64,000 nt of DNA from sequence record OP778609; one strand, given 5' to 3'. The position numbers were made by a program, and so were the translations under genes. Origin of the DNA: Escherichia phage A73. Below the pieces are notes generated by a model, which saw only the letters and a program-made list of their open reading frames with translations, was not told where the DNA came from and ran no database searches. Positions 2,215-47,741 of this stretch are shown in pieces (the first letter of the stretch is position 1; each line of letters starts with the position of its first letter).

Positions 2215-3390
2215 TCAAAACGGAATATCGTCGTCAAAATCCATATCATCTACAGACATATTTACATGTCCTTCAATATCAGGGGTAGGTGAATCTTCTG
2301 CTGACGGAGTTAACTGCGGTTCCGGCTCAGGTTTCTTTTCCTCTTGCTTAGGAGTTGAAGCACCGTTACGGATCTTATCTTCCAATTGACAGATGAATCG
2401 GAAATTCTCTTCAGTCTTAGCAATAAAGGTTTCGATATTGTCACGACCCCAACGGGCAGAAAGAATGCCACACTGGCCTAAACGAGCACCGAAAGAGTAA
2501 TCATCCATAGATTTAAACTCTTCACGCAGTTTTGCTTTGATCGAATCCATCGCTGCAAGAACTTGTTCTACGATCACACCCTGATTTGCAATAGTTTCAT
2601 CAGGGAACATTGCATCGGTAATAGATAGTGCATTACCTAAACGAATAGGTAGATCATCTTTACCTTTACCTGAACGTGATCCTGTTCCAGTACTTGCACC
2701 TTTTGGACCGTAAGCTTTAAAGCCTGTAACCGTACCATCATCTGAACGAACACCTGCAATACGACCACCTTCTGTAATCTGACCCGTCTGTTCATCAGTG
2801 AGGTTTACAGTAACTTCTGTGCCGTCTTCCAGCTTAACAACTACCTTATTGCCTTCGATAGATGTGATATCACCATAAATCTTCTTAGCTGCACCACCAG
2901 ACGGCTTTTGCTGCTGTTGGGAACCACTTGATTGCTGCTGTTGCTGACGAGGCTCACGAGCACCGGATGCGTCAGTAATCTTGATACGTGCTTTCTTACC
3001 TTCTGTAGAAGAACCTTGACTACCATCTTGTTTGGTATAGGTCTTGATAACAACAGGTAAACGAATTTTCATACCCTCTTTAAGATCGGTGTAACCACCT
3101 TCAGGATTTTTAATCTGGAACTGATTCTCATACTTCAGATTTTTAACTTCACCCTCACCAAAAGAAATCCATGCTTGATCTTCACCTTCTTTAAGAAGAA
3201 CCGCATAGCGGTGGGTATTGTTAATGCTTTTCTGCTGACCAGTATTCTTGTCTTTGAAGGTAGTCACTCGTGGGCTACCATCTTCATTAATACGTTTGAT
3301 CATGATACGTTCAATCGTACCTGCTGCAATGTTTACTGTGGTATCGGAAACAGCATCGTATACAGCATTGATAACTTTAACTTCAGACAT
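2215..3390 (-). CDS. ssDNA-binding (SSB-like) protein with E. coli SSB-type acidic C-terminal tail
   Basis: 391 aa; C-terminus MDFDDDIPF matches the E. coli SSB tip; Gln/Gly/Ser-rich linker; N-terminal domain not confidently recognised as a canonical OB fold. Confidence 0.65.
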   Translation of the reverse strand: MSEVKVINAVYDAVSDTTVNIAAGTIERIMIKRINEDGSPRVTTFKDKNTGQQKSINNTHRYAVLLKEGEDQAWISFGEGEVKNLKYENQFQIKNPEGGYTDLKEGMKIRLPVVIKTYTKQDGSQGSSTEGKKARIKITDASGAREPRQQQQQSSGSQQQQKPSGGAAKKIYGDITSIEGNKVVVKLEDGTEVTVNLTDEQTGQITEGGRIAGVRSDDGTVTGFKAYGPKGASTGTGSRSGKGKDDLPIRLGNALSITDAMFPDETIANQGVIVEQVLAAMDSIKAKLREEFKSMDDYSFGARLGQCGILSARWGRDNIETFIAKTEENFRFICQLEDKIRNGASTPKQEEKKPEPEPQLTPSAEDSPTPDIEGHVNMSVDDMDFDDDIPF

Positions 3391-3473
3391 TTAAATCTCC
3401 TTTAACTATTGAACACACCACTTAAGGCCGAGAAACTATATTACAACTAACTTATTTGAATTGCAAACAACTT

Positions 3474-3854
3474 TTAGAGATAAACTCGCTTAACTTTTTC
3501 ATGAACATTATCAAACAAAGTGTTGATCATCTGCAAGTCTTTAATAAGTTCTTCCGTAAATTGTTCTTCTTTGTGAGCAAACACACGAGAACGGTCAATG
3601 TTTACAGGATCTGAACTTTGGTCGCCTGACAGATCGAAAATGTCGATACCGATACGAGCACGGCCTTTTTCAATCTTGTTGTTTTCATCAATACCGAAGA
3701 CACTCATGATTTGCATTTCACGATCTTCTTCACTGTTTGTGTAAATGATCGTCGTATTCAAATTCTTAACACCATCGTAAATGTGAATGTTACGTGTCGC
3801 AGAGATAGGAATCCAATCAGCAACCAAATAATCTTTACCGTCGAAAATACTCAT
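3474..3854 (-). CDS. hypothetical protein
   Basis: 126-aa ORF, co-oriented in the leftward block. Confidence 0.5.
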   Translation of the reverse strand: MSIFDGKDYLVADWIPISATRNIHIYDGVKNLNTTIIYTNSEEDREMQIMSVFGIDENNKIEKGRARIGIDIFDLSGDQSSDPVNIDRSRVFAHKEEQFTEELIKDLQMINTLFDNVHEKVKRVYL

Positions 3855-3908
3855 CTTCTTTCCTCTTTTGTTTAAGTGGGGCCATTATGCCCCACACTTA
3901 ACTTTCTG

Positions 3909-4481
3909 TCAAGGACGTTTCGGTGGACTAACGACACCTTTTTTAGATAAAGGTAATTCGTCTGCATCTTTTCCACGGAGAGATTCTAACCACTCATCTA
4001 AAGATAGAGGTACTTTGCCAACACCCTTGGACCATACAGATAAGCAATACAGGTCGTATGCAGATGGGCCAGCATCACCCTTGTCACCATACGGCCCTTT
4101 TAAACTCGCCAACCAATCCTTTTCATTCAGTGGGATAGTGCCTGGATCTTCTTGTCGAAGAACTCTTAGGTATGTTTCATAAGCAGACTCTCCACGGGGA
4201 CCCATTGGACCAGGTAAACCTTGCGGTCCCTTTGCATAGTCTAAATATGCAGACTTTGAACCATCATTGACCACTGAAACTTTATACAATGACCAAGCCA
4301 ACAGAACTATCCAACAAGCAAACAATGCAAGCGGGTAAGGGATCATTGAAGTAAAGAATGACAGGGCTAAAATTACAACCTTGTTCTTGTGATCACGACG
4401 GAAAGCGATGATCACAGGGGCTAACCAGATAGCAAAGATAACCCACGCAGATAAGATAAACAACCAACTAATGTATTCCAT
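3909..4481 (-). CDS. membrane protein with collagen-like Gly-X-Y repeats
   Basis: 190 aa; two N-terminal hydrophobic helices; GPQGLPGPMGPRGES and GPYGDKGDAGPS triplet repeats. Confidence 0.55.
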   Translation of the reverse strand: MEYISWLFILSAWVIFAIWLAPVIIAFRRDHKNKVVILALSFFTSMIPYPLALFACWIVLLAWSLYKVSVVNDGSKSAYLDYAKGPQGLPGPMGPRGESAYETYLRVLRQEDPGTIPLNEKDWLASLKGPYGDKGDAGPSAYDLYCLSVWSKGVGKVPLSLDEWLESLRGKDADELPLSKKGVVSPPKRP

Positions 4482-16280: not shown

Positions 16281-16997
16281 TTATTTGTTGTATTGATAAA
16301 TTGCTTCAGCTAAACCCCGTGGAGTTAGTGACCGGATCATCTTAGTTCTTGCTGACTTACCTCCCAACTTATTCTGCTGATCTGACCAACCAGGTGCAAC
16401 AGGAACCGGAGAGGTTTTTGGAATTATAAACCCATTTCCTGTCCAAAGTCCAGTCTTTTTCGGATAAGCATCCCGTGGTTTAATGTATTGAGGAAAATAA
16501 GGGTTAACATCATTTACCGGAAGGTAACCACCATATTCCCAAGGGTTAAAATATACAGTAGGTTTTCGCCATTGTCCAGCTAAAACACTTACTGGGTTTT
16601 CAATCATATACGGACAATCGAAAACAAATTCAGCAAGCCAGGCTGCAATCTTCGCAGTTCTTACCGCCTTGATCTGGAAGAAAGGATCTTTTGCTTTCTT
16701 CGATGCAAAGTGACGAGAACCACTAACAGCCATATCGGTACATGGAGGGTAGGCAAGGATCAGGTCCGGCGCAGGCAATCCTAAGTTCTCTACATTCTCC
16801 ATCCATTCAATATCGATAAAGGCGTTAACGTAAGTGATGTTGGGATGAATTTCCTTTACGCCTTCATAATCCCCGTGATCAGCATCATCATAGTTGAAGC
16901 AGTAGCATTTGTGCCCTGCCTTCGCCCAGGGAAGAACATCAATCCCTGAGCCAGAAAAGAGACTCCAGATAATCTTTTTATTCATCGTAGCATCCAT
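16281..16997 (-). CDS. DNA (cytosine-5)-methyltransferase-like protein, minimal
   Basis: 238 aa; motif I LFSGSG, motif IV PPCTDMAVSG (catalytic Pro-Cys), motif VI ENP, motif IX-like RSLTPRG; very short target-recognition region. Confidence 0.65.
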   Translation of the reverse strand: MDATMNKKIIWSLFSGSGIDVLPWAKAGHKCYCFNYDDADHGDYEGVKEIHPNITYVNAFIDIEWMENVENLGLPAPDLILAYPPCTDMAVSGSRHFASKKAKDPFFQIKAVRTAKIAAWLAEFVFDCPYMIENPVSVLAGQWRKPTVYFNPWEYGGYLPVNDVNPYFPQYIKPRDAYPKKTGLWTGNGFIIPKTSPVPVAPGWSDQQNKLGGKSARTKMIRSLTPRGLAEAIYQYNK

Positions 16998-17290
16998 ATA
17001 GTGGTTAATTTACAAATACACCAGAAAATCCCGATCAGTGTAGCAAGAGCAATAACACAAGTCAATGCCATAGGTAAGAATATTGTCATAATCACTGCAA
17101 ATACTGAAATACCTACGCTTGCAATAAGATCCGGTACGAAATAGTGAAATGGTTCTCTGGCCTTTTTAACGTTGTCCCATGTTATCACTACGGAGGTAAT
17201 AGCGAGCCAGAATAAAAAGTACAAAGTGCAAGAAAATAAAGTCATATTTGACTTAATCATATCAAACCACATGTTGTAGAATTCAATCAT
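16982..17290 (-). CDS. small multi-pass membrane protein
   Basis: 102 aa; about three hydrophobic helices. Confidence 0.45.
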   Translation of the reverse strand: MIEFYNMWFDMIKSNMTLFSCTLYFLFWLAITSVVITWDNVKKAREPFHYFVPDLIASVGISVFAVIMTIFLPMALTCVIALATLIGIFWCICKLTTIWMLR

Positions 17291-17610
17291 TCAGTTTTCC
17301 TCGGTACAGATGCAATAACAGCCTTTTCGACGAGACATACAATAAATCTCCCAATCCCTGCCAAAAGGAGAGCAAAGACTGTAAAAGGCAACCCATAAAT
17401 AAGAACTAGGGCCATCAATCCAAAACCAATGGCAAACAGGGTTTCTGTGCCTAGCCACATCTTAGAGTAATTGATATAATTATACCGCAATTTTAAAAAC
17501 AGTCCAGCAATAGAGCCTACAGAAAATATACCAATCAACCAAGGTGCGGTTACAAATGAACGACTGAACCCTTCCCAAAAAACAAAAACATTAATGATTG
17601 CTTCGATCAT
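17287..17610 (-). CDS. small multi-pass membrane protein
   Basis: 107 aa; three to four hydrophobic helices. Confidence 0.45.
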   Translation of the reverse strand: MIEAIINVFVFWEGFSRSFVTAPWLIGIFSVGSIAGLFLKLRYNYINYSKMWLGTETLFAIGFGLMALVLIYGLPFTVFALLLAGIGRFIVCLVEKAVIASVPRKTE

Positions 17611-22824: not shown

Positions 22825-24183
22825 TTACTGGTTATTGAAAATACTCGGGAACTTCTCGTGATAGAAGTCTACAACATCCTGATCAACGATGATATCTTTT
22901 ACTCGCAGACGCTTCATCAGGCGAAGACCTTCTACGGATGTGGCACGAGATAGCATGACGTAGGCTTGCCCAGGTGTAAAAGTACCAAAACCAAGATCAA
23001 TATTTACTTTACCCAAGGTAAGACCCTGCGCTTTATGACCCGTGATTGCATAACCTAACTTAAATGGGTACTGGATATACTCACCGATAGATTTATCAAC
23101 AAGAACAGTTTTTTCAACCATCTTCTTGATCGTCTTTTTGGTTCCGTCCGGCATATCCACCTCTTCCTCTTCAAGCATCATCTTTTTCTCAGGTACTTGA
23201 GCAACGTTGTTCCATGTTGCAGGGCCTATTGGGACCATCTTGCCATCGATATCTACAACAACAAAGGTTTTTGCGATACGACGAACAATGCCGACTGTAC
23301 CGTTGACATAATCAGGCACTTTCTTCTTCTGATCATTGTCGTTAACAACAATCATTACTTTAAGACCTTCCTTGAGAAAGAGTTTTTCATTAACTGGACG
23401 TTCAACAAACTCACCAGTAATACGGGCATTAAATTCATGCTGTTCAGCATTAATCTTTGCGTACTCTTTGTTGTTAATCTCTTCTGCCAGCTTGTTTGTG
23501 GTAGTTAAAGTTACTGCCCCGTCAAGTGGACGACCAAAGCAACGCTGGTTAAAGAAGTTAACGGCATCAGGGATGTTTTTCCCGATACGAATATTGTTCA
23601 GGTGTTCTGCAAACACTGGATCACTTTGACGATGAACTTTAGGAAGATAAGCATAGGTCAGATTCAAAGATTCCCAAGTTTCACACCCAAAAGGAATTTC
23701 TTTCCCGTGCAGTTCACGGAACAAAGGAACTTCTTCTTTCTTAAGTACAGGCTTGATCTGGAAGCCGTCACCAAACATGATGATCTGGAGTCCACCAAAA
23801 GGCTTATCGGATTTACGATGGTGGCGAAGTTTCATATCGATTTCTTTCAGTTTGTCACTTCTAGTCATACCGATCTCATCGAACACGATACCATCGAGTG
23901 CATCAGATGCCATAAGCATAGCTGCCTTTTTAGATTTTGCTTTATAATCCTCGGAAGTTGTGACACCAAAGGTTAAACCAAACGCTTTATGGGTAGTAAC
24001 ACCACGGATGTTTAATGATGCCACGCCTGTTGGACCAACAAACAGAAAACTATCAGCAAAGAAGTCACGCAGTGCTGCGATCATCATACTTTTACCACTA
24101 CCACCAGGTCCGGTGATAAAAACGTTTTCCCCATTCATGATTGCTTGCATTGCCGCTTCGTTACCGATCACTGTCTTAGTCAT
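22825..24183 (-). CDS. Dda/Pif1/RecD-like SF1B DNA helicase
   Basis: 452 aa; Walker A GPGGSGKS, motif II VFDEIGM, GDGFQ, HKAQGLT, YVMLSRAT. Confidence 0.8.
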   Translation of the reverse strand: MTKTVIGNEAAMQAIMNGENVFITGPGGSGKSMMIAALRDFFADSFLFVGPTGVASLNIRGVTTHKAFGLTFGVTTSEDYKAKSKKAAMLMASDALDGIVFDEIGMTRSDKLKEIDMKLRHHRKSDKPFGGLQIIMFGDGFQIKPVLKKEEVPLFRELHGKEIPFGCETWESLNLTYAYLPKVHRQSDPVFAEHLNNIRIGKNIPDAVNFFNQRCFGRPLDGAVTLTTTNKLAEEINNKEYAKINAEQHEFNARITGEFVERPVNEKLFLKEGLKVMIVVNDNDQKKKVPDYVNGTVGIVRRIAKTFVVVDIDGKMVPIGPATWNNVAQVPEKKMMLEEEEVDMPDGTKKTIKKMVEKTVLVDKSIGEYIQYPFKLGYAITGHKAQGLTLGKVNIDLGFGTFTPGQAYVMLSRATSVEGLRLMKRLRVKDIIVDQDVVDFYHEKFPSIFNNQ

Positions 24184-24373
24184 TATTTAGTTCCTCATAT
24201 TCGTATGGGTAGATTTGATACTCTTTGTTGTCTTTTAGTGCGACGGCTGTAACACTTTCAACGTAAAAATCATCATCATAGTGTATTTCCTCAATTACGA
24301 GAATATCACCTTTCTTTGGATGATCATCACGATCACTGAAATCATTTAATAGCTTTATTTTTACGTTTTTCAT
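24176..24373 (-). CDS. hypothetical protein
   Basis: 65-aa acidic ORF. Confidence 0.4.
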   Translation of the reverse strand: MKNVKIKLLNDFSDRDDHPKKGDILVIEEIHYDDDFYVESVTAVALKDNKEYQIYPYEYEELNND

Positions 24374-24554
24374 ACAACATCTCCGCTGCTACAAGTGATA
24401 AGATCATTGCCATATACATCACAATAGAGGTCACACTGATTTGAATGAATAGTTCATCAGTAACATGATTGAAGTAAACATTCTTTACATATCGAACCCC
24501 TATAAGCCAAAATGCCATCACCACAGCAAATGTTAGTATCATACGTTTTATCAT
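24342..24554 (-). CDS. holin-like small membrane protein
   Basis: 70 aa; two TM helices and a charged C-terminus EKRKNKAIK; ATGA overlap with the hydrolase gene. Confidence 0.45.
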   Translation of the reverse strand: MIKRMILTFAVVMAFWLIGVRYVKNVYFNHVTDELFIQISVTSIVMYMAMILSLVAAEMLYEKRKNKAIK

Positions 24555-25066
24555 TTCTTCTTCTCCTCTTTGTCTTTATAAAAGATGTGATTTTCTATGG
24601 TTACTGTTCTTTTTAGAAGTTTACGCCAAACGGGTTTAACCTTCTTCGTATGATAATACAGAGATCCATATGTCGGGTCAAACCTTTTGTACAAAATCTC
24701 GTTATTTTTTAGCTTATGTACGAATTTTGATATACTAAGAGCACCCTCCCAAGAATCTTTATCTGTTATATTATAGGAAGATTTGGTTAGTGTCCACGAG
24801 AACTGAGAGGCTTGATACACAACACCCTTCATAGTGGTTGGGAACTTATCATGCTTCATACGATTCATGGTTACAAATGCAACAGCCATCTGACCATTAA
24901 CAGTCTCACCTCTTGCTTCCATATAGACATTACAGGCTAAGGCATTTACAGAATTATCCTTTTTCGTACATTTATGAATAACCTTCTGTGCTCTCTCTTT
25001 GGCATAAGTGACACCTGGTGCCAGAGACAGAGTACAAATCAAACCACATAAAACTAATTTTTTCAT
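24551..25066 (-). CDS. secreted cell-wall hydrolase, SleB/CwlJ family (candidate endolysin)
   Basis: 171 aa; N-terminal signal peptide; YMEARGETVNGQMAVAFVTMNRMKHDKFP and GSLYYH match the SleB catalytic-domain signature. Confidence 0.7.
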   Translation of the reverse strand: MKKLVLCGLICTLSLAPGVTYAKERAQKVIHKCTKKDNSVNALACNVYMEARGETVNGQMAVAFVTMNRMKHDKFPTTMKGVVYQASQFSWTLTKSSYNITDKDSWEGALSISKFVHKLKNNEILYKRFDPTYGSLYYHTKKVKPVWRKLLKRTVTIENHIFYKDKEEKKK

Positions 25067-25112
25067 TTTTCCTCCAATTGAGGACCCAGCTTATCACTGG
25101 GTCACCCTCTTG

Positions 25113-25499
25113 TCAACTACCTTCGATATGCTTCTGAATTTGATCAGCAATGCCTTTCCATAAACCATTAAGGAAAGGGTTACTTGTGATGATTTCGCCC
25201 AACCAAGGGCCATACAGGCGGTATACGTAGTCATCTGTGATCGCATAGATACTTCCATCACGTACAGCAAGACCACGTACAAGGGAGGTTGTTACACGAC
25301 GACCTGCAAACCCCGTCTTTTGGTATTCCAGTTCAGAATGTTCAATATAACCTACCAGATTTACCAGATTTTGAGTTCCATCAATTGCAAACCCACATTT
25401 CTTTTCAAGGTCTTCTGAAATCTTACTGACCCCCTCTAATGCGAAGTTACCTCCAAATTTTAGGCCGTACTTAGCTGCAAGTTTATCGTGCGCTGTCAT
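25113..25499 (-). CDS. hypothetical protein
   Basis: 128-aa ORF. Confidence 0.5.
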   Translation of the reverse strand: MTAHDKLAAKYGLKFGGNFALEGVSKISEDLEKKCGFAIDGTQNLVNLVGYIEHSELEYQKTGFAGRRVTTSLVRGLAVRDGSIYAITDDYVYRLYGPWLGEIITSNPFLNGLWKGIADQIQKHIEGS

Positions 25500-28063: not shown

Positions 28064-28745
28064 TCCCTATTTGTAATGGTACAATACCTAAAGCTTCCAA
28101 ACCTGCCTCCACGACCTTACGATTTACAGAAGCCTCAAACTCTGCTTGTGCTTTCGCCTTAACAACCTCGGAGTTTTCCTTAAACACGTTAATCGCATGT
28201 TGAGTGATATCCGGCAGCTTTGAATGAACACGAGTGATCTTATTCTTAAGTTCAGTCAATTCTTTCTTTGTTGCCTTACCTTTCTCAATAAGTTGCTGGA
28301 CTTCAATTACGGCTTCCAGATGGTCCTTTAAAAGATCTTTTAAGTCTTTATCCACGTTCAAGCCGATCATGTCAGAACTGTTTTGTTGTCCCTCAATGCC
28401 AGGAACATATCCATCGCCCTTGATATATCTTAATGTGATTGGTACGCCTTGTCCACTATGGGATGCCACTAACTCTGCCCATTGGTAAGATGTTAATTCA
28501 ATCTCAATGACACGAGAGTTTCGTGACGTATAATAAGACGGCAAACCATAAGAAATCTCCTGGTATGCGGTATCAATACGTAAACAAACACGTTGATTAT
28601 GGGTCGTGTCTGATCCGAACATTTCCACATTCCCACCAGTTGGGTGAGTGATTGATGCCAACCCATAAGCGGGGTGTGTCTGGATTACACGCTCAAATAC
28701 GCCAGCTTCAGACAATTTTACTTCGGGCTTCATTACGTTTCTCAT
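28050..28745 (-). CDS. hypothetical protein
   Basis: 231 aa; C-terminal coiled-coil-like region. Confidence 0.55.
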   Translation of the reverse strand: MRNVMKPEVKLSEAGVFERVIQTHPAYGLASITHPTGGNVEMFGSDTTHNQRVCLRIDTAYQEISYGLPSYYTSRNSRVIEIELTSYQWAELVASHSGQGVPITLRYIKGDGYVPGIEGQQNSSDMIGLNVDKDLKDLLKDHLEAVIEVQQLIEKGKATKKELTELKNKITRVHSKLPDITQHAINVFKENSEVVKAKAQAEFEASVNRKVVEAGLEALGIVPLQIGSADD

Positions 28746-28753
28746 AAAATCCC

Positions 28754-28954
28754 CTATTTTATTTTTACAATGTATTTAGAAGTTCTTCGGATTCTTTGGG
28801 TCCTTGTCCAAGTTGGGTCAACATACTCTATTTCTGCCAGACCCTTACTCGGGATGATTCTGGTGATAATCCCCTTAAATATAGTTTTACGATCGTCATA
28901 AGTAAAATCTACTTTGTCACCAACTTTCATCTCTATACCCATTAAATCTTTCAA
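28754..28954 (-). CDS. hypothetical protein
   Basis: 66-aa ORF. Confidence 0.4.
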   Translation of the reverse strand: MKDLMGIEMKVGDKVDFTYDDRKTIFKGIITRIIPSKGLAEIEYVDPTWTRTQRIRRTSKYIVKIK

Positions 28955-28958
28955 ATCA

Positions 28959-29183
28959 TCAACCCCGTCTTTCTTTCAGTTCCTGTAAGAATAACTCATC
29001 CGCAAGATTATTTAAACTATTTGCCAGATTTCGGGCTTGTTCACGAGTAACACGAATACCAACAGAATCACAACCTTCGCGATCGCAGTAGTCAATACCA
29101 ATCAGAATTTTACCTTTTTCAGTTGAAGGGGTGATGTTAATTTCTGCCTGATAATCTACACCAATATCTTGAAATGCCATCAT
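28959..29183 (-). CDS. hypothetical protein
   Basis: 74-aa ORF. Confidence 0.4.
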   Translation of the reverse strand: MMAFQDIGVDYQAEINITPSTEKGKILIGIDYCDREGCDSVGIRVTREQARNLANSLNNLADELFLQELKERRG

Positions 29184-29337
29184 TTTGTATATACCTCTTG
29201 TATTTCTGCGATTAATGTTTCAGAGGAACTGGCAATTTCTGCTCGGACTTCCTCTGCTTTTTCTTTATCTTCAAACAGGGTCGGATGAATTTGAGCATCC
29301 TCACCACAATGAAGACACAGTATAGCATAATACTTCA

Positions 29338-29700
29338 TCACTTATTACCTTTTTCTTCTTCATGCGGCTTAACAATAATCTCTTCAATAATCTCAGGATC
29401 AATGTTTTTAGTATACATAAAAGTATAAAGCGCCGTTTTCAAAGCGGCACGTTTACCATAGTAATGATCTGCGATGCCATTCTGTTTTGATAGTTTATGA
29501 ATCTCCACTATTTTGCTTTCAACTTCTTCGTTGGAGATCTCTATGTACTCGACTGCTGACATACGTTCAATAAATATTGCATTAAGACCGTATAACTTGG
29601 CATCTCGCTCCACGTATTCTTTGAATCGCTGCCACTCTACCTCATCTTTGATAAGGTCTGCAATTTTAAAGATTACTGGGTGCTTACGTGATTTGGTCAT
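29338..29700 (-). CDS. hypothetical protein
   Basis: 120-aa ORF. Confidence 0.5.
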   Translation of the reverse strand: MTKSRKHPVIFKIADLIKDEVEWQRFKEYVERDAKLYGLNAIFIERMSAVEYIEISNEEVESKIVEIHKLSKQNGIADHYYGKRAALKTALYTFMYTKNIDPEIIEEIIVKPHEEEKGNK

Positions 29701-29756: not shown

Positions 29757-30014
29757 TCAACTAAAAATTAAAGAAACAACGTGGTAAATTACTTGGGGAA
29801 AGATAACTACGAAGTACAGATCAACAAATCCAGAGATAAAGTGATAAGCCTTCAGTTTTGTACGTTTACCTTTGTAAAAATCAGAGATGATTTTGAAATA
29901 TTTATAAAGATTCCTTAAAAGTGCAAAACCGATCAACCCCAACCCACTAAGAACCACAACAAAAAGTGAAAACTGGACGTCCGCACTAAAAACACCAATA
30001 ATAAGATCTAACAT
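29757..30014 (-). CDS. small membrane protein
   Basis: 85 aa; two or three hydrophobic helices. Confidence 0.45.
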   Translation of the reverse strand: MLDLIIGVFSADVQFSLFVVVLSGLGLIGFALLRNLYKYFKIISDFYKGKRTKLKAYHFISGFVDLYFVVIFPQVIYHVVSLIFS

Positions 30015-30883: not shown

Positions 30884-31343
30884 TATTTATTTGGATACCG
30901 AAACGATTTTCATTAGTGGAAAAGAAACCATTTTCCATGCGGCGAATCTCTTCTTTCATCACTTCCTGCATCGTTAATTTAAGGATTTCTTTGTTTAATT
31001 TTGGCTTAACTTCACGGAGCTTGTCAAGAAGTTTTTCCATTTCTTCTTTTACTTTTTCTTCCTCATTTTCTACCTCTAATTGGTCCATTGCATCTTTACA
31101 AACACAGCAATGGCCCACAACTCTTAAAATATGATTTTGTATAGGTAATGCTTTTCTTCCACAATACCCACAAACAATAGACCCACCGGAGGACCGGGCA
31201 TCTATCGTCAATGTAGGCTTGGCCCCTTCTGCTTGAGAATGCCAAGTCTTTTTACCCTGGTAATCATACATAAAGAATTCGTAGGATCTTTCATCAACGT
31301 GGTCTTCGAGCATATGTAAAGTTCGTGTATTGAAATGTTTCAT
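30855..31343 (-). CDS. hypothetical zinc-finger protein
   Basis: 162 aa; CGYCGRK ... HCCVCK Cys cluster; Glu/Lys-rich coiled-coil-like C-terminus; first gene of the leftward block. Confidence 0.5.
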   Translation of the reverse strand: MKHFNTRTLHMLEDHVDERSYEFFMYDYQGKKTWHSQAEGAKPTLTIDARSSGGSIVCGYCGRKALPIQNHILRVVGHCCVCKDAMDQLEVENEEEKVKEEMEKLLDKLREVKPKLNKEILKLTMQEVMKEEIRRMENGFFSTNENRFGIQINNGEDYVEED

Positions 31344-31380
31344 TTTTAACTCCTCGTCGTTTGTATGTGCTAACTATACG

Positions 31381-31394
31381 AGAACTTGAGGGGA
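31381..31394. promoter_or_regulatory. GAGAACTTGAGGGG motif in divergent promoter region
   Basis: Same motif as the direct repeats at 40066-40240; lies between divergent gene starts at 31343 and 31464. Confidence 0.4.
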
Positions 31395-31404
31395 AGATCA
31401 ATAC

Positions 31405-31432
31405 TTGATTTGCATTTTATTTTCATTATACT
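31405..31432 (+). promoter_or_regulatory. sigma70-like promoter for the rightward block
   Basis: TTGATT-N16-TATACT upstream of the gene at 31464. Confidence 0.5.
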
Positions 31433-31463
31433 GTGCACATCTAAAACGAGAAGGAGATGACAA

Positions 31464-32027
31464 ATGAGTCAAGATAAAGAGTTAGCCATTGCGATATCCG
31501 TAGCTGCTTCTGCCCATGTTGACCAAGTAGATAAAGGGGGGAATATCTATATTCTTCATCCTTTGCAGGTGATGCAAACATTGCAGCAAAAGGGAAGGGA
31601 AGATTTAATGGCAGCAGGAGTTTTGCATGATGTGATTGAAGATACTGAAATCACTATGGAACACCTCTTTAAAAAGGGGATTTCAGAAAGAACCTTAGTG
31701 ATTGTCGATGCAGTGACAAAGAAACGTAAGCAATCTTCATCTGATTACCTAGAGGGGATTTTAGAGAGTGAGGGTGCTTGTCATGTTAAGCTTGCGGATC
31801 TTAAACACAACTTAGATATTCTGCGAACTTGTAGCACCACAGAAAAAGACTTGCAACGGGTCAGGAAGTATGTAACAATGCACTTGTTGATTACGGAGAT
31901 GGTTGATTGGTATGAAAGTATCGGAAGGTATCTCGATTATTGTGATTCTTTTGCCTATTCTAGCTATCTCGACGAACGTAAAGAATTTGTTCAGAAACTT
32001 ATTAAAAAATGGAAGGAGTTTAAATGA
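31464..32027 (+). CDS. small alarmone hydrolase (RelA/SpoT-type HD-domain (p)ppGpp hydrolase-like)
   Basis: 187 aa; HD-domain signature NIYILHPLQV ... AAGVLHDVIEDT ... IVDAVTKK ... HVKLADLKHN. Confidence 0.75.
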   Translation: MSQDKELAIAISVAASAHVDQVDKGGNIYILHPLQVMQTLQQKGREDLMAAGVLHDVIEDTEITMEHLFKKGISERTLVIVDAVTKKRKQSSSDYLEGILESEGACHVKLADLKHNLDILRTCSTTEKDLQRVRKYVTMHLLITEMVDWYESIGRYLDYCDSFAYSSYLDERKEFVQKLIKKWKEFK

Positions 32028-32557
32028 AAAAGGTATTGAGTATTGAGCCGTTCACAACAACATACTTTGACGATTTGGAACGTCATGGTGATTATGGGGT
32101 ACAAGACGCTGATGGTTGGAAAGAATTCCCTGAAGAAACAAAAGGTGACATTACAAAGCTCGGTTGTAAGATCAATGGATCTGAACCAAAAGGTGTTTAC
32201 ACCATGTTTTCTTTCCTTGAAGCTATGAACCCAACGTACAAGGGAGATCGGCAATTTGGTTTTTCTTTTGCATCATTCCTTACTTGTAGCTGTGGTCATG
32301 GGGGTTGTGCAGGCTATCATGATAATGTGGTTATTCGACGTAAAAAGAATACCGTGATGGTCATGGGTAAAAAGGAAGATGGTTATGACGAAGGTGTTGT
32401 ATTGACAGGTGAATCTGTTGTATACTTCGATAAAAAGCAGTGGGACGGTGTTCTAGAACACTACCTTAAACTCTTCAAAGAAAATCCTGATGGTGTTTTT
32501 GAAGATGCGGGTTTTATGTTTACTGGTCGTTGGGGGACTAAAAATTTTTCAAAATAA
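32024..32557 (+). CDS. hypothetical protein
   Basis: 177 aa; Cys/His cluster CSCGHGGCAGYHD; ATGA overlap with the upstream gene. Confidence 0.5.
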   Translation: MKKVLSIEPFTTTYFDDLERHGDYGVQDADGWKEFPEETKGDITKLGCKINGSEPKGVYTMFSFLEAMNPTYKGDRQFGFSFASFLTCSCGHGGCAGYHDNVVIRRKKNTVMVMGKKEDGYDEGVVLTGESVVYFDKKQWDGVLEHYLKLFKENPDGVFEDAGFMFTGRWGTKNFSK

Positions 32558-32627
32558 TTTAAAAACTTGTTGACTTAAGAAATAGAAAAGATATACTTAT
32601 CACATCAAAAACAAGAGGAGATATAAA

Positions 32628-33857
32628 ATGCAAGCAACTTATCAACGTATGGACCAAACCATGTTCAAAAAACGTATCAGTATCCGTGATATGGAACCAC
32701 TGATCCGTCTGGGCGCTTCCATCGGTAAGACCGTGTTCTTTTTTGGTGGTGCAGGTCTTGGTAAGTCTGAAAAAGTAAAACAGATCGCGGACTCTATGTT
32801 CCCACATCGTGTAGGAAATAACCTGTGTGATGTTCGTCTGTCCGATAAAGAGCCGCAAGATATTGCAGGTATTCCGATTCCGATCTCTTATCCAGATCCA
32901 AAGACTGGTGAAGAAGTTACCCGTACTGTATATGCTGTTCCAAACTTCTGGCCTACCGATCCTGATTGGGAAGGTATCGTGTTCCTGGATGAACTGCCGA
33001 ACGCACCATTGGGTACTCAGCACTCTGCATATCAGGTTATTCTTGATCACGTTGCAGGTGAACATAAGTTCCCGAAAGGTACTGTGTTTGTAGGTGCAGG
33101 TAACCGTGATACTGATGGCGCTGGGACAACATCTATGCCTGGTCCACTGGTTAACCGTATGATCATTGCAGAGGTCGATTATAATCTGGATGTGTGGATC
33201 GAAGATTATGCGATTCCGTTCCGTCTGCATCCGAACATTATTGGTTTCTTGAAGCAGTTTCCAGAGCATTTCTATACTGGTGACGTAGAAAACCGAAGCA
33301 CTCCGGTTTATTCATCTCCTCGCCAATGGAAAACCGCGTCTGACATTCTGTATAAGTACGATGCTGGCGAGATTAATGAATTTATCGCAGAGGTTGCCCT
33401 GGCAGGTACAGTTGGTGAAGGCTTGGAAGTGCAGATCCTTGCTTACCATTTACGTGCTAAAGAACTTCCTCCGATTGAAGATATCTTTAGTGGTGCAGTT
33501 AAAGAGCATAAACTTGATCGCAGCAAGAACGACCTTGTTTACGTACTGGCACAAACTGGTCTGCGTCGTATGGAAGATGAAGTTATGGATAACGATATGA
33601 CTGATGATAAGTTCCTTGAACGTGCAGGTAACTTCCTTACGTTCATGTACAATAACTATTATGCAAACAACAAGGATACGATGATTGCTTTGATCTTGGG
33701 CGTGTTCCGTGGTCCAAACGATAAGCCATCTATCCTGACTGTTAACCCGAAACGTCAGAAAATGATTCCGCTCATGCGTAAAAGTTGCCCGACTGTTTCT
33801 GCCGCAGTTATGGAATACATGACTCGCTATGGTCAACTGATTAAAGAATTCGAATAA
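32628..33857 (+). CDS. MoxR/CbbQ-like AAA+ ATPase (AAA_5 type)
   Basis: 409 aa; Walker A GGAGLGKSE, Walker B VFLDELPNAP; strong E. coli-like optimal codon usage (CGT, CTG, CCG, GGT). Confidence 0.75.
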   Translation: MQATYQRMDQTMFKKRISIRDMEPLIRLGASIGKTVFFFGGAGLGKSEKVKQIADSMFPHRVGNNLCDVRLSDKEPQDIAGIPIPISYPDPKTGEEVTRTVYAVPNFWPTDPDWEGIVFLDELPNAPLGTQHSAYQVILDHVAGEHKFPKGTVFVGAGNRDTDGAGTTSMPGPLVNRMIIAEVDYNLDVWIEDYAIPFRLHPNIIGFLKQFPEHFYTGDVENRSTPVYSSPRQWKTASDILYKYDAGEINEFIAEVALAGTVGEGLEVQILAYHLRAKELPPIEDIFSGAVKEHKLDRSKNDLVYVLAQTGLRRMEDEVMDNDMTDDKFLERAGNFLTFMYNNYYANNKDTMIALILGVFRGPNDKPSILTVNPKRQKMIPLMRKSCPTVSAAVMEYMTRYGQLIKEFE

Positions 33858-36540: not shown

Positions 36541-36948
36541 ATGGATGCTTTTTTGAGTATAGTCTTTGCACTAACAGTGGTTGATTGGGTATTTATCGGT
36601 ATCTATTTACTGTGTATTCCTTTTGTGATCTGGTTTTACATTGACCTTTTGGCAGGTACTGGCAAAGTAAGTGGGATGGACTACTTCATGTTTATTGTTG
36701 TGATCCTGATGGGACCTTTAGCTTTGTTGTCTTTCCTTATTGCAAACATTGTGGTAAGAGGGGGCGCTATCAAACAAGCCATTCTTTTAAAGGTGAGTGG
36801 AACTGATATCGGTAAGAAGATCATTGTCTGGAACATTACACGTAAGCTTAAGAAGACTGATACCAAATGGGTTAATCCTTTAGAGCGAGCCGTTCAGAAA
36901 CGTCACAAAGTCTTAATAGGGAGAAAACATGGGAAATACAATCCGTAA
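36541..36948 (+). CDS. membrane protein
   Basis: 135 aa; three hydrophobic helices. Confidence 0.5.
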   Translation: MDAFLSIVFALTVVDWVFIGIYLLCIPFVIWFYIDLLAGTGKVSGMDYFMFIVVILMGPLALLSFLIANIVVRGGAIKQAILLKVSGTDIGKKIIVWNITRKLKKTDTKWVNPLERAVQKRHKVLIGRKHGKYNP

Positions 36949-43008: not shown

Positions 43009-43152
43009 ATGAAAACTTGTCAGTGTGGTAAAAAGTCTATTACTGGTCTGCGTCGCGGTGTTGCTTTATGCCAGTATCATTACAATAGTCAAGTATGGGG
43101 TAAAACGTGGGCTGACCAGGTTGAAGCAGCAAATAAAGCAAAAAGTAATTGA
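43009..43152 (+). CDS. small zinc-ribbon-like protein
   Basis: 47-aa ORF absent from the track; CQCG ... CQYH; own promoter, hairpin and RBS. Confidence 0.45.
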   Translation: MKTCQCGKKSITGLRRGVALCQYHYNSQVWGKTWADQVEAANKAKSN

Positions 43153-43176
43153 CAGTAAGAAGAAAAAGAGTAAACT
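43149..43176 (+). promoter_or_regulatory. sigma70-like promoter plus leader hairpin
   Basis: TTGACA-N16-TAAACT; hairpin GCGGCAATAGCGCCGC. Confidence 0.55.
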
Positions 43177-43227
43177 GTATTACGTAGAGCGGCAATAGCG
43201 CCGCCACATCAAAGAGAGAGAATCAAA

Positions 43228-47534: not shown

Positions 47535-47741
47535 ATGAAAAAGAAAATTGTATATAATATTATTAGCTTTATCGCAACTATCCTCCTGGCTATTGCTGGT
47601 CTATCTTTGATTGTTGCAGTAGGATCTCTGTTTCCTGGGGCAATAAGTATTAGCATAGCTTTCGCCGCATTGTCTGTTTTTACAGGGTATGCAGGGATTA
47701 AAGTTACTTACTGGTCAGAAGATTACAAATATTCAAACTAA
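47535..47741 (+). CDS. small membrane protein (two TM helices)
   Basis: 68 aa, hydrophobic; promoter TTGACG-N17-TATAAT upstream. Confidence 0.5.
   Translation: MKKKIVYNIISFIATILLAIAGLSLIVAVGSLFPGAISISIAFAALSVFTGYAGIKVTYWSEDYKYSN

Follow-up and report, generated by a model that had tools for sequence, protein, structure and literature searches.

A 171-aa hydrolase with a complete SleB/CwlJ-type catalytic domain and a predicted export signal is encoded immediately ahead of a 70-aa protein with two transmembrane (TM) segments, in a tightly packed gene string that runs into a replication helicase. The window (the whole 64,000-nt stretch of DNA analysed here) comes from a Septuagintavirus (Vequintavirinae) myophage of E. 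coli. We give an even chance to the reading that the two proteins are an auxiliary exported muralytic enzyme and a holin-like partner, acting within a dispersed lysis system. The arrangement itself is already known, having been described in 2020 for the sister genus Certrevirus (PMC7344957), and the genus paper on Septuagintavirus already lists the hydrolase under "Lysis". The locus adds little alone, the hydrolase being an annotated protein (100% identical to A73_73 of Escherichia phage A73). The more general question concerns the division of labour, and the timing, between exported SleB-type hydrolases and classical cytoplasmic endolysins in large Gram-negative phages.

An earlier note on this DNA had claimed a 171-aa protein with a signal peptide and the SleB/CwlJ signature, an ATGA-overlapping 70-aa two-TM protein with a charged C-terminus, and a position between a helicase and early genes. 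All three descriptions were borne out: both ORFs lie where it had placed them, on the minus strand, the first encoding a full Hydrolase_2 domain with Sec-type signal features and the second two TM domains (TMDs) and a +3 tail, and they are followed by a 65-aa ORF and then a PIF1/Dda-type helicase gene, each overlapping its neighbour. The features of the locus, in window coordinates, are as follows.

25080..25116, minus strand: stem-loop and TTGACA element upstream of the hydrolase gene (RNA fold; conservation)
25071..25075, minus strand: Shine–Dalgarno GGAGG of the hydrolase gene (read from the sequence)
24551..25066, minus strand: hydrolase CDS, 171 aa (ORF; PF07486; PHROG 938; 4F55/4FET matches; AF2 and Foldseek)
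25001..25066, minus strand: predicted signal peptide, hydrolase residues 1–22, MKKLVLCGLICTLSLAPGVTYA (signal peptidase I site predicted after T-Y-A)
24917..24919, minus strand: codon of Glu50, predicted catalytic, 'YMEARGE' motif (alignment with SleB 4FET/4F55; invariance)
24563..24568, minus strand: Shine–Dalgarno-like GAGGAG within the 3' end of the hydrolase gene, 8 nt before the start of the 70-aa gene (read from the sequence)
24551..24554, minus strand: ATGA stop/start overlap of the hydrolase and 70-aa genes (read from the sequence; 'tcat' on the plus strand)
24342..24554, minus strand: 70-aa membrane protein CDS (ORF; TM segments; charge distribution)
24176..24373, minus strand: 65-aa CDS, acidic and soluble (ORF; phrog_14198, E = 3e-10)
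22825..24183, minus strand: PIF1/Dda-like DNA helicase CDS, 452 aa (PF05970, E = 6e-22; phrog_30356 and phrog_325)

The hydrolase and its gene string

The hydrolase matches the whole of the Pfam Hydrolase_2 model (PF07486; positions 1–100 of 100, E = 2.2e-23, 83.2 bits against a cut-off of 27) over residues 53–163, as well as PHROG 938, labelled 'endolysin' (E = 4e-27). Searching PDB sequences returned 4F55 and 4FET, both SleB catalytic domains, and the same two entries were the sole significant PDB matches (probability 1.0, TM 0.73–0.74) when Foldseek was run with an AlphaFold (AF2) model built with an alignment of database homologues (pLDDT 87.5). In the alignment with SleB (4FET/4F55), Glu50 of 'YMEARGE' pairs with the first Glu of 'GESRGE', which we take from the SleB structure papers to be the catalytic residue (E151 in B. 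anthracis). This Glu is invariant in an alignment spanning nine phage clades (A1) and in another of 34 sequences (A2). Homology to SleB makes it probable that the hydrolase is a lytic transglycosylase whose catalytic acid is Glu50.

Like Bacillus SleB, a germination-specific cortex-lytic enzyme, the window's protein has the catalytic-domain fold and the Glu-containing motif, but it is without an N-terminal PG_binding_1 domain and is ~25% identical. With the spore_SleB equivalog model (TIGR02869, NCBIfam), whose cut-off is 236.5 bits, it scores 64.7 bits, and the C-terminal catalytic part alone aligns; these scores indicate a protein that shares the SleB domain but is not a SleB orthologue. Since the E. 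coli host has no muramic-δ-lactam cortex, its substrate must be ordinary Gram-negative peptidoglycan.

On inspection, the N-terminus (MKK-LVLCGLICTLSL-APGVTYA↓KE) is laid out like a signal peptidase I (SPase I) substrate, with a basic n-region, a hydrophobic h-region and small residues at −3 and −1 of the c-region. Residues 4–22 have a Kyte–Doolittle value of 1.82, residues 1–24 are disordered in the AF2 model, and a site of the form [A/V/S]-x-[A/S]↓K-[E/D] occupies the same position in 13 of 13 close relatives. The protein thus has the features of Sec/SPase I secretion, with cleavage predicted at TYA↓KE to leave a mature hydrolase of 149 aa and pI 9.85. In the alignment, the Cys33/Cys45 pair is kept in the Vequintavirinae and Phapecoctavirus while other clades have a different Cys pair, which fits a periplasmic, disulfide-bonded enzyme.

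Downstream, the ATGA overlap together with the GAGGAG indicates that the hydrolase and 70-aa genes are translationally coupled. The 65-aa gene shares 32 nt with the 70-aa gene and 8 nt with the helicase gene, and so joins the pair to the helicase in a single tightly packed gene string. A homologue of the 65-aa protein stands at the equivalent position in one metagenomic relative (L014), and the synteny from SleB-like gene to helicase, which here lies directly downstream of the 65-aa ORF, is kept in four metagenomic relatives. The pair's place beside a replication helicase, in one overlapping string, suggests that its expression is early or middle, which is unusual for holin and endolysin genes. 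The T4-type late promoter motif TATAAATA was not enriched and a scan for consensus promoters rose barely over shuffled expectation; with these scans indecisive, expression timing is read from gene packing.

Upstream of the hydrolase gene, a hairpin core GACCCAG-N7-CTGGGTC (25083–25103) is directly preceded by TTGACA (25111–25116), and the element folds as RNA with a dG of −21.2 kcal/mol (z = −3.87). It occurs once in the window and is kept in phages UPEC06 and A7_1; two metagenomic relatives (57% protein identity) also have it, there with T-runs and a single compensatory change of a base pair. Standing at the head of the string from hydrolase to helicase, the element may be a terminator/promoter junction. 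We rejected the hairpin as an intrinsic terminator in this phage, where it has no T-run and a terminator scan gave no call; T-runs are a feature of the relatives.

The 70-aa membrane protein and its positional counterparts

The hydrophobic segments of the 70-aa protein cover approximately residues 5–23 and 37–57 (Kyte–Doolittle 2.0, more precisely 2.03 for TMD1, and 2.1), and charge is distributed as +2 at the N-terminus, 0 in the loop and +3 in the C-terminal tail 'EMLYEKRKNKAIK'. Its topology is predicted by the positive-inside rule to be N-in/C-in. With two TMDs, a basic tail and a coupled muralytic gene, the protein has, as far as sequence can tell, a class II holin-like architecture. Its only three Pfam hits, to unrelated membrane families, all fell below the gathering cut-off, and searches of PHROG and NCBIfam gave no family; it matched no described holin family. 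A search against 1.84 billion representatives turned up its own cluster alone; the protein is a sequence orphan, present in just five phage records. Its first residues, Met1-Ile-Lys-Arg-Met5, resemble a dual-start motif (M-x-K-R-M) and are kept in UPEC06, but the sole Shine–Dalgarno sequence lies 8 nt from ATG1 and ~20 nt from ATG5, which makes dual starts doubtful.

The S21-68 protein of phage 21 is small (68–71 aa) and has two TMDs, both ends cytoplasmic, a basic C-terminus and a SAR-type TMD1. The 70-aa protein is like the S21 class II holins/pinholins in its small size, two TMDs, predicted cytoplasmic ends and basic C-terminus and in adjoining an exported muralytic enzyme, as predicted here. 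Unlike S21 with its SAR endolysin, the enzyme gene comes first and the membrane protein second, the signal appears cleavable and there is no holin-family similarity. An S21-type pinholin was rejected as a candidate, TMD1 being strongly hydrophobic (G/A/S/T fraction 0.25) and not SAR-like, and the partner enzyme having a predicted cleavable signal.

Two-TM partners recur in relatives. A small two-TM ORF lies directly downstream of a signal-peptide SleB-like gene in a Seunavirus-like Salmonella phage (57 aa) and in an Erwinia Henunavirus (76 aa), the pair in both genomes being directly upstream of rIIA. Two metagenomic relatives have two-TM ORFs of 71 and 73 aa directly downstream of the SleB-like gene, and such an ORF is reported in most Certrevirus genomes (PMC7344957). 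The family phrog_10205 matches the partners of two metagenomic relatives, not the window's 70-aa protein. We considered homology among the partners across genera and do not claim it: alignment gave just ~20% identity, as composition alone gives in TM segments, and for the same reason we claim no homology between the 70-aa protein and its positional analogues. The partner is absent from an rV5-like genome, where the SleB-like gene abuts rIIA, and from one metagenomic relative (L016), where it abuts the helicase, and is replaced by a 139-aa single-TM protein in another (L017). No TM partner was found in the T5-like or Phapecoctavirus genomes examined, nor in the other clades sampled. Gene content across these genomes indicates that the two-TM partner is dispensable in evolution.

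In the Pectobacterium phage CB7 (Certrevirus), CB7_83 is a SleB-like protein with a signal peptide, and the overlapping CB7_82 encodes a protein of 65 aa with two TM segments and N-in/C-in topology, put forward as a 'class II holin candidate' (Buttimer et al. 2020, PMC7344957). Expression of CB7_83 in E. coli was reported to be toxic (given there as 'data not shown'; PMC7344957). The window's locus shares with CB7 a signal-peptide hydrolase gene followed by an overlapping two-TM gene, within the same subfamily and the same genome layout, and also the dispersal of the lysis genes, the CB7 M15 peptidase lying elsewhere and Rz/Rz1 adjoining the terminase (PMC7344957). The small membrane proteins of the two loci show no detectable sequence similarity, and the 70-aa protein finds no Certrevirus record (tblastn, E <= 1).

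Other lysis genes and the role of the pair

Judging from the close relative A7_1, the pair is not the phage's only lysis equipment. A7_1 encodes a cytoplasmic M15 peptidase endolysin (PF13539; phrog_465, E = 8e-66) at 115.9 kb and an Rz/Rz1 spanin pair, adjoining the terminase, at 144.1 kb, its hydrolase/membrane-protein pair being at 57.4–58.2 kb. The M15 gene is ~58 kb from that pair and, like the spanins, falls outside the window, where a regex search for the M15 zinc motif found none. The neighbours of the A7_1 M15 gene are all soluble, with no adjacent holin; over 97–145 kb of A7_1, small TM proteins were checked just around the M15 and spanin genes. There are many other small membrane proteins in the genome. 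One of them, the A71_132 homologue, a three-TM protein of 152 aa encoded in the late tail module, is kept in 106 Vequintavirinae records, which makes it at least an equal holin candidate to the 70-aa protein. No holin family was matched among the membrane proteins examined in the genome.

The earlier note had suggested that the pair might be the lysis cassette, or else that the hydrolase might be secreted to serve some other function, and that a canonical cassette elsewhere, combined with a lack of lytic activity, would speak against the lysis reading. The canonical components do exist in A7_1, in the form of the M15 endolysin and Rz/Rz1, but are scattered and form no cassette, so the genomic part of that objection holds only in part. 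A contiguous holin–endolysin–spanin cassette was not found: the lysis genes of A7_1 are dispersed, and the pair belongs to the helicase gene string.

As an auxiliary muralytic enzyme, the hydrolase would be exported by the Sec pathway, freed into the periplasm after SPase I cleavage at TYA↓KE, and would build up there, while the 70-aa protein would build up in the inner membrane with both ends cytoplasmic. Triggering of the latter would depolarise or permeabilise the membrane and free the cytoplasmic M15 endolysin for full attack on the sacculus, after which the Rz/Rz1 spanins would disrupt the outer membrane. Here we infer from the sequence the signal cleavage, the enzymatic specificity, the holin activity, the timing and any functional tie that the two proteins may have.

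How a cleaved, soluble periplasmic hydrolase would be restrained until triggering is an unexplained point against this reading. Lys44 of the Oenococcus phage fOg44 has a cleavable signal peptide, and its action is thought to depend on holin depolarisation. The window's hydrolase resembles Lys44 in being an endolysin-type enzyme with a (predicted) cleavable signal peptide; unlike it, Lys44 serves a Gram-positive host and belongs to another catalytic family.

Lysis may not be the role at all, a reading that we take seriously while judging it on balance improbable. The hydrolase would then be made with the replication genes and act in the periplasm during infection, for example to loosen or remodel the sacculus, take apart structures that span the envelope, or exclude superinfection; lysis would fall to the M15 endolysin, another holin and the spanins, and the 70-aa protein would be unrelated, or a regulatory or immunity membrane protein, coupled by chance. 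Such a role would suit the single overlapping gene string shared with the helicase and the conserved TTGACA/hairpin upstream, which resembles a host-type promoter/terminator junction. The SleB-like homologue is moreover a second peptidoglycan hydrolase in several large-phage clades (here beside M15) and, in the clades examined, lies among DNA-metabolism or early genes, often without a TM partner; a T7-like Roseobacter phage has it at the early, far-left end of its genome. However, in at least five Vequintavirinae lineages the gene is coupled to a small two-TM protein, and in others it adjoins rIIA, which points to lysis control; the toxicity reported on expressing the CB7 homologue is also consistent with a lytic enzyme. 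None of the phage Hydrolase_2 proteins has a documented non-lytic role, and the timing invoked is read from gene packing.

A broader proposal, offered tentatively and which we think unlikely, is that exported Hydrolase_2 enzymes are widespread early or middle periplasmic effectors of large lytic Gram-negative phages, beside a classical endolysin. Their role may then be envelope remodelling, sacculus priming or superinfection exclusion, not terminal lysis; in some Vequintavirinae the small two-TM partner may control or restrain the enzyme, and the TTGACA/hairpin and helicase overlap may reflect expression with the replication genes.

It is decidedly unlikely that the pair forms the primary, self-sufficient cassette, with a Sec-secreted endolysin, a pinholin-like depolarising protein and M15 as an accessory. 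Nowhere else in the genome is a gene for a muralytic enzyme physically joined to one for a small membrane protein, and the hydrolase family is labelled 'endolysin' by PHROG, but the M15 protein itself strongly matches a canonical endolysin family (the phrog_465 match given above) and, being cytoplasmic, needs a large-hole holin. In the 70-aa protein TMD1 is strongly hydrophobic, which sets it apart from the S21 pinholin with its SAR-type TMD1, and the hydrolase signal appears cleavable and not a SAR anchor, so that there is no obvious tethered inactive state. Relatives retain the SleB-like gene yet lose the TM partner, and T5-like phages with a holin-adjacent M15C (PMC11180984) keep the SleB-like gene elsewhere.

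That the hydrolase stays membrane-bound, as a lipoprotein or an uncleaved SAR-type signal-anchor enzyme, is highly improbable: Cys7 and Cys11 do lie within the hydrophobic segment, 7 of 13 close relatives have a lipobox-like L/I/V-x-A just before the equivalent Cys, and Pakpunavirus and Aeromonas-phage homologues have N-terminal TM-like anchors with no obvious cleavage site, but the lipobox [LVI][ASTVI][GAS]C is absent from the window's protein (L or I precedes each Cys), Ser replaces Cys in three relatives, the Cys is just 10–12 residues from the N-terminus, the segment is Leu-rich (G/A/S/T fraction 0.37, L/I/V/F/M 0.42) and not SAR-like, and the AXA↓K[ED] site downstream of it is kept in all 13 relatives. 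The missing lipobox led us to reject a lipoprotein, and the G/A/S/T fraction and the conserved AXA-type site after the segment a SAR endolysin.

SleB-type genes across Gram-negative phages

The earlier note had called SleB-type enzymes unusual as Gram-negative phage endolysins, which does not stand: tblastn detected hydrolase homologues in 1285 phage records, all host genera tallied being Gram-negative, and in a published survey Hydrolase_2 is one of the catalytic domains said to have 'dominated among G-' phage lysins (PMC8223927). Nor is the location atypical, as had been supposed, since homologues lie among DNA-metabolism or early genes in T5-like phages, Phapecoctavirus, Pakpunavirus, rV5-like phages and other Vequintavirinae.

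SleB-type domains usually accompany a classical cytoplasmic endolysin. In T5-like phages the M15C endolysin gene adjoins the holin gene (PMC11180984), and the SleB-like gene is kept away from both. Elsewhere the SleB-like homologue accompanies GH24 (Phapecoctavirus; PMC10793346), GH19 (phage LNA4; PMC12031403) or an M15 or lysozyme-like enzyme (Certrevirus; PMC7344957). The window's hydrolase resembles the 'second endolysin' of T5-like phages and Phapecoctavirus, a signal-peptide Hydrolase_2 protein encoded far from the holin/endolysin genes with another endolysin in the genome. Unlike the window's, the SleB-domain loci of these two groups have no downstream two-TM ORF, and their proteins are 35–38% identical to the window's hydrolase.

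Our literature search found no biochemical or genetic study of a Hydrolase_2 enzyme from a phage of a Gram-negative host, and a scan of viral contigs with back-translated hydrolase peptides gave nothing confirmable. Septuagintavirus phages grow on E. coli K-12 MG1655 and so offer a convenient system for knockouts and timed expression. An answer to how the exported and cytoplasmic enzymes share their work would bear on the reading of "endolysin" annotations (PHROG 938) and on the choice of enzymes for enzybiotic work.

A signal-peptide SleB-like hydrolase and its two-TM partner

The two genes are arranged as follows:

24551..25066, minus strand: ORF for the 171-aa hydrolase
24342..24554, minus strand: ORF for the 70-aa protein

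The hydrolase, 100% identical to protein A73_73 of Escherichia phage A73, covers the entire Pfam Hydrolase_2 model (PF07486, SleB/CwlJ domain; E=2.2e-23) and has a further match in PHROG 938 (label "endolysin"). Two SleB catalytic-domain structures, 4F55 and 4FET, were matched at the sequence level and were the only PDB matches (probability 1.0, TM 0.73) of its AlphaFold model, which was built on a 34-homologue alignment and has a pLDDT of 87.5, with residues 1-24 disordered. Within its YMEARGE motif, Glu50 aligns to the first Glu of SleB GESRGE, which we take to be the catalytic residue, and is invariant in alignments of nine phage clades and of 34 database homologues. On inspection, the N-terminus (MKK/LVLCGLICTLSL/APGVTYA↓KE) is laid out in three parts like a substrate of signal peptidase I, and [A/V/S]-x-[A/S]↓K-[E/D] is kept at the same position in 13 of 13 close relatives; we infer that signal peptidase I would cleave at TYA↓KE. 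A conserved Cys33/Cys45 pair suggests a periplasmic disulfide. A lipobox-like L/I/V-x-A-C motif was seen inside the signal peptide (residues 7-12) in 7 of the 13 close relatives (rows P0004, P0006, P0009 and P0012-P0015 of the 34-homologue alignment); it is absent from the window's hydrolase and five others, Ser replacing Cys in three. This motif is probably incidental, and some relatives might be lipoproteins.

The two genes have 24551-24554 in common (ATGA on the coding strand), and GAGGAG lies 8 nt upstream of the start codon of the 70-aa gene. Its product has two strongly hydrophobic segments (residues ~5-23 and ~37-57) and charges of +2 at the N-terminus, 0 in the loop and +3 in the tail (EMLYEKRKNKAIK), with a predicted N-in/C-in topology by the positive-inside rule. 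This architecture and the coupling to the hydrolase gene fit a class II holin. Several observations tell against that assignment, among them the loss of the partner in some relatives and rival candidates in the genome (both below). None of the Pfam (gathering cut-off), PHROG or NCBIfam families matched the protein, only five phage records contain it, and searching 1.84 billion representatives exhaustively turned up nothing beyond its own cluster. Identity with positional analogues is ~20%, too low for homology to be claimed. For two reasons the pair does not follow the pinholin/SAR-endolysin paradigm: TMD1 is strongly hydrophobic and not SAR-like, and the partner hydrolase is of the cleavable type, with no SAR anchor. 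Met1-Ile-Lys-Arg-Met5 resembles a dual-start motif, but the sole SD is positioned for Met1.

What the earlier note had observed is thus confirmed: a SleB/CwlJ hydrolase with a signal-peptide layout (its cleavage being predicted), followed across an ATGA overlap by a two-TM protein with a charged C-terminus.

Genomic setting and other lysis genes

Identity of the region with Escherichia phages A5-4, A7_1, W70, UPEC06 and LTH01 is 92-97%; these phages and A73 belong to Septuagintavirus or its close relatives (subfamily Vequintavirinae). The complete A7_1 genome has its structural genes on the plus strand at 1-34 kb, followed at 34-64 kb by a long minus-strand block containing DNA polymerase, primase/helicase, a Dda/PIF1-like helicase and the pair. 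An unbroken string of overlapping genes runs in the window from the hydrolase through the 70-aa gene and a 65-aa ORF to the helicase, and the order SleB-like gene, small ORF(s), PIF1 helicase is conserved in four metagenomic relatives (hydrolases 51-57% identical).

24176-24373, minus strand: acidic, soluble 65-aa ORF, overlapping the 70-aa gene by 32 nt and the helicase gene by 8 nt

This ORF matched phrog_14198 (labelled 'exonuclease', E=3e-10), has a homologue at the same position in a metagenomic relative, and is annotated in UPEC06 and left unannotated in A7_1.

Elsewhere, A7_1 encodes a 127-aa cytoplasmic peptidase (A71_42, 115.9 kb; Pfam Peptidase_M15_4, E=5e-15; phrog_465 "endolysin", E=8e-66). 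No holin adjoins it: the neighbouring genes all code for soluble products, namely PhoH, a 136-aa and a 76-aa protein, and one whose CxxC motif makes it look like a glutaredoxin. Directly upstream of the large terminase lie A71_101 and A71_102, an i-spanin (N-terminal TMD) and an o-spanin (lipobox LVGC) with overlapping stop and start codons, matching phrog_4297 and phrog_1267. These M15 endolysin and spanin genes are scattered and outside the window. The earlier note would have counted a canonical cassette elsewhere, combined with a lack of lytic activity of the hydrolase, against its reading; the genomic part of this holds only by half, a canonical endolysin and spanins being present but neither a cassette nor an assigned holin. 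None of the many small membrane proteins examined elsewhere in the genome matched any holin family, and those predicted in the window matched no known holin or other annotated family. Membrane-protein genes include:

16982-17610 and 29757-30014 (examples), minus strand: small predicted membrane proteins (57-135 aa, 1-3 TMDs) among early/unknown-function genes
36541-36948, 43025-43198 and 47535-47741 (examples), plus strand: the same class (57-135 aa, 1-3 TMDs) among early/unknown-function genes
A7_1 28578-29365, outside the window: overlapping membrane-protein genes A71_131 and A71_132 in the late tail/baseplate module

A71_131 (110 aa; phrog_5345) has an N-terminal TMD, a coiled-coil-like region and weak Rz-like matches; A71_132 (phrog_7451), with 152 aa and three TMDs, is conserved across 106 records of Vequintavirinae. 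Both are possible holin or antiholin candidates, and for A71_132 a holin role is no less plausible than for the 70-aa protein.

SleB-like genes in other phages and the role of the pair

Homologues of the hydrolase were detected by tblastn in 1285 phage records, all tallied host genera being Gram-negative, and a phage lysin survey places Hydrolase_2 among the catalytic domains dominating in Gram-negative phages (PMC8223927). Contrary to the earlier note, such enzymes are not unusual there, nor is the location atypical: in the clades examined, SleB-like genes usually lie among DNA-metabolism or early genes and their products usually carry a signal peptide or N-terminal anchor. All large-phage clades that were sampled, or for which a description was found, have a classical endolysin as well, the SleB-like gene being a second hydrolase. 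That endolysin is M15C in T5-like phages (adjoining the holin, whereas the SleB-like gene is far away; PMC11180984), GH24 in Phapecoctavirus, GH19 in phage LNA4 and an M15 or lysozyme-like enzyme in Certrevirus (PMC7344957). A small two-TM ORF directly follows a signal-peptide SleB-like gene in four further lineages: a Seunavirus-like Salmonella phage (57 aa, then rIIA), an Erwinia Henunavirus (76 aa, then rIIA) and two metagenomic relatives (71 and 73 aa). The TM partner is absent from an rV5-like genome and one metagenomic relative, and replaced by a 139-aa single-TM protein in another.

The arrangement is already on record for Pectobacterium phage CB7 of the sister genus Certrevirus (Buttimer et al., 2020; PMC7344957). 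Its SleB-like protein CB7_83 carries a signal peptide and proved toxic when expressed in E. coli (data not shown by the authors); the gene for CB7_82, a two-TM protein of 65 aa that they proposed as a class II holin, overlaps that of CB7_83. They saw no classical cassette in CB7, where the spanins adjoin the terminase and the M15 peptidase lies elsewhere. Septuagintavirus has both an M15C peptidase and a SleB-like hydrolase (Cortés-Martín et al., 2024; PMC11370258), and the "Lysis" list of that genus paper holds exactly two enzymes, "Cell wall hydrolase, SleB" and "Endolysin". We found no functional test in the literature of CB7_83/CB7_82 or of the Septuagintavirus M15C and SleB-like proteins. 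The pair is ordinary for Vequintavirinae and already published. How exported SleB-type hydrolases and classical endolysins share the work is a question that reaches beyond this locus to large Gram-negative phages in general, and this E. coli K-12 system would allow it to be tested.

Directly seen are an export-type signal, an intact SleB-family catalytic domain, a gene for a two-TM protein coupled to that of the hydrolase and, in a close relative, a cytoplasmic M15 endolysin and spanins encoded elsewhere. The earlier note's interpretation is partly supported. We give roughly even chances to an auxiliary periplasmic hydrolase, the holin-like 70-aa protein, the M15 endolysin and the spanins acting jointly in lysis. 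The hydrolase, probably a lytic transglycosylase by analogy with SleB, would be cleaved and set free in the periplasm as an auxiliary muralytic enzyme; the 70-aa protein would build up in the inner membrane and, once triggered, depolarise or permeabilise it, which would lead to release of the M15 peptidase and full degradation, spanins acting as the last step. A non-lytic periplasmic role for the hydrolase is less likely; in its favour are that the SleB-like gene is always the "second hydrolase", sits here in a replication block and has a TM partner that is dispensable in evolution. We consider it improbable that the pair is a self-sufficient primary cassette, and highly improbable that the hydrolase is membrane-anchored or a lipoprotein.

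Further features of the window and related loci

In other Vequintavirinae, an rIIA homologue lies directly downstream of the SleB-like gene, with or without the two-TM ORF:

2712 onward: Seunavirus-like Salmonella phage locus
2757 onward: Erwinia Henunavirus locus
2495-4477: rV5-like locus

A PIF1/Dda helicase occupies this position in the window and its closest metagenomic relatives. The rII link may point to lysis-timing control. The T7-like genome of Roseobacter phage CRP-113 (Autographiviridae) has at its far left (early) end, upstream of the integrase and RNA polymerase genes, a SleB-like gene (749-1141 of its locus) whose product lacks an N-terminal export signal; this is an odd position for an endolysin gene.

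25080-25116, minus strand: element upstream of the hydrolase gene with a stable stem-loop, GACCCAG-N7-CTGGGTC core (dG -21.2 kcal/mol, z = -3.9)

This element lies between a 128-aa ORF (25113..25499) and the hydrolase gene, in the order TTGACA, hairpin, hydrolase RBS, and is conserved in UPEC06 and A7_1. It also occurs, with T-runs, in two metagenomic relatives (hydrolases only 57% identical), where one base pair is changed in a compensatory way (A-U to G-C) and one copy has TTGACA-16-TATACT. The element may mark the junction of a terminator and a host-type promoter at the head of the gene string from hydrolase to helicase. Where the plus-strand block begins after the divergent junction, at ~31,200-33,500 of the window as placed by comparison with UPEC06 118229-120622, the UPEC06 annotation has a MoxR-type ATPase and a GTP pyrophosphokinase of the RelA/SpoT-like small alarmone synthetase type, which may represent a host-takeover or anti-defence module.
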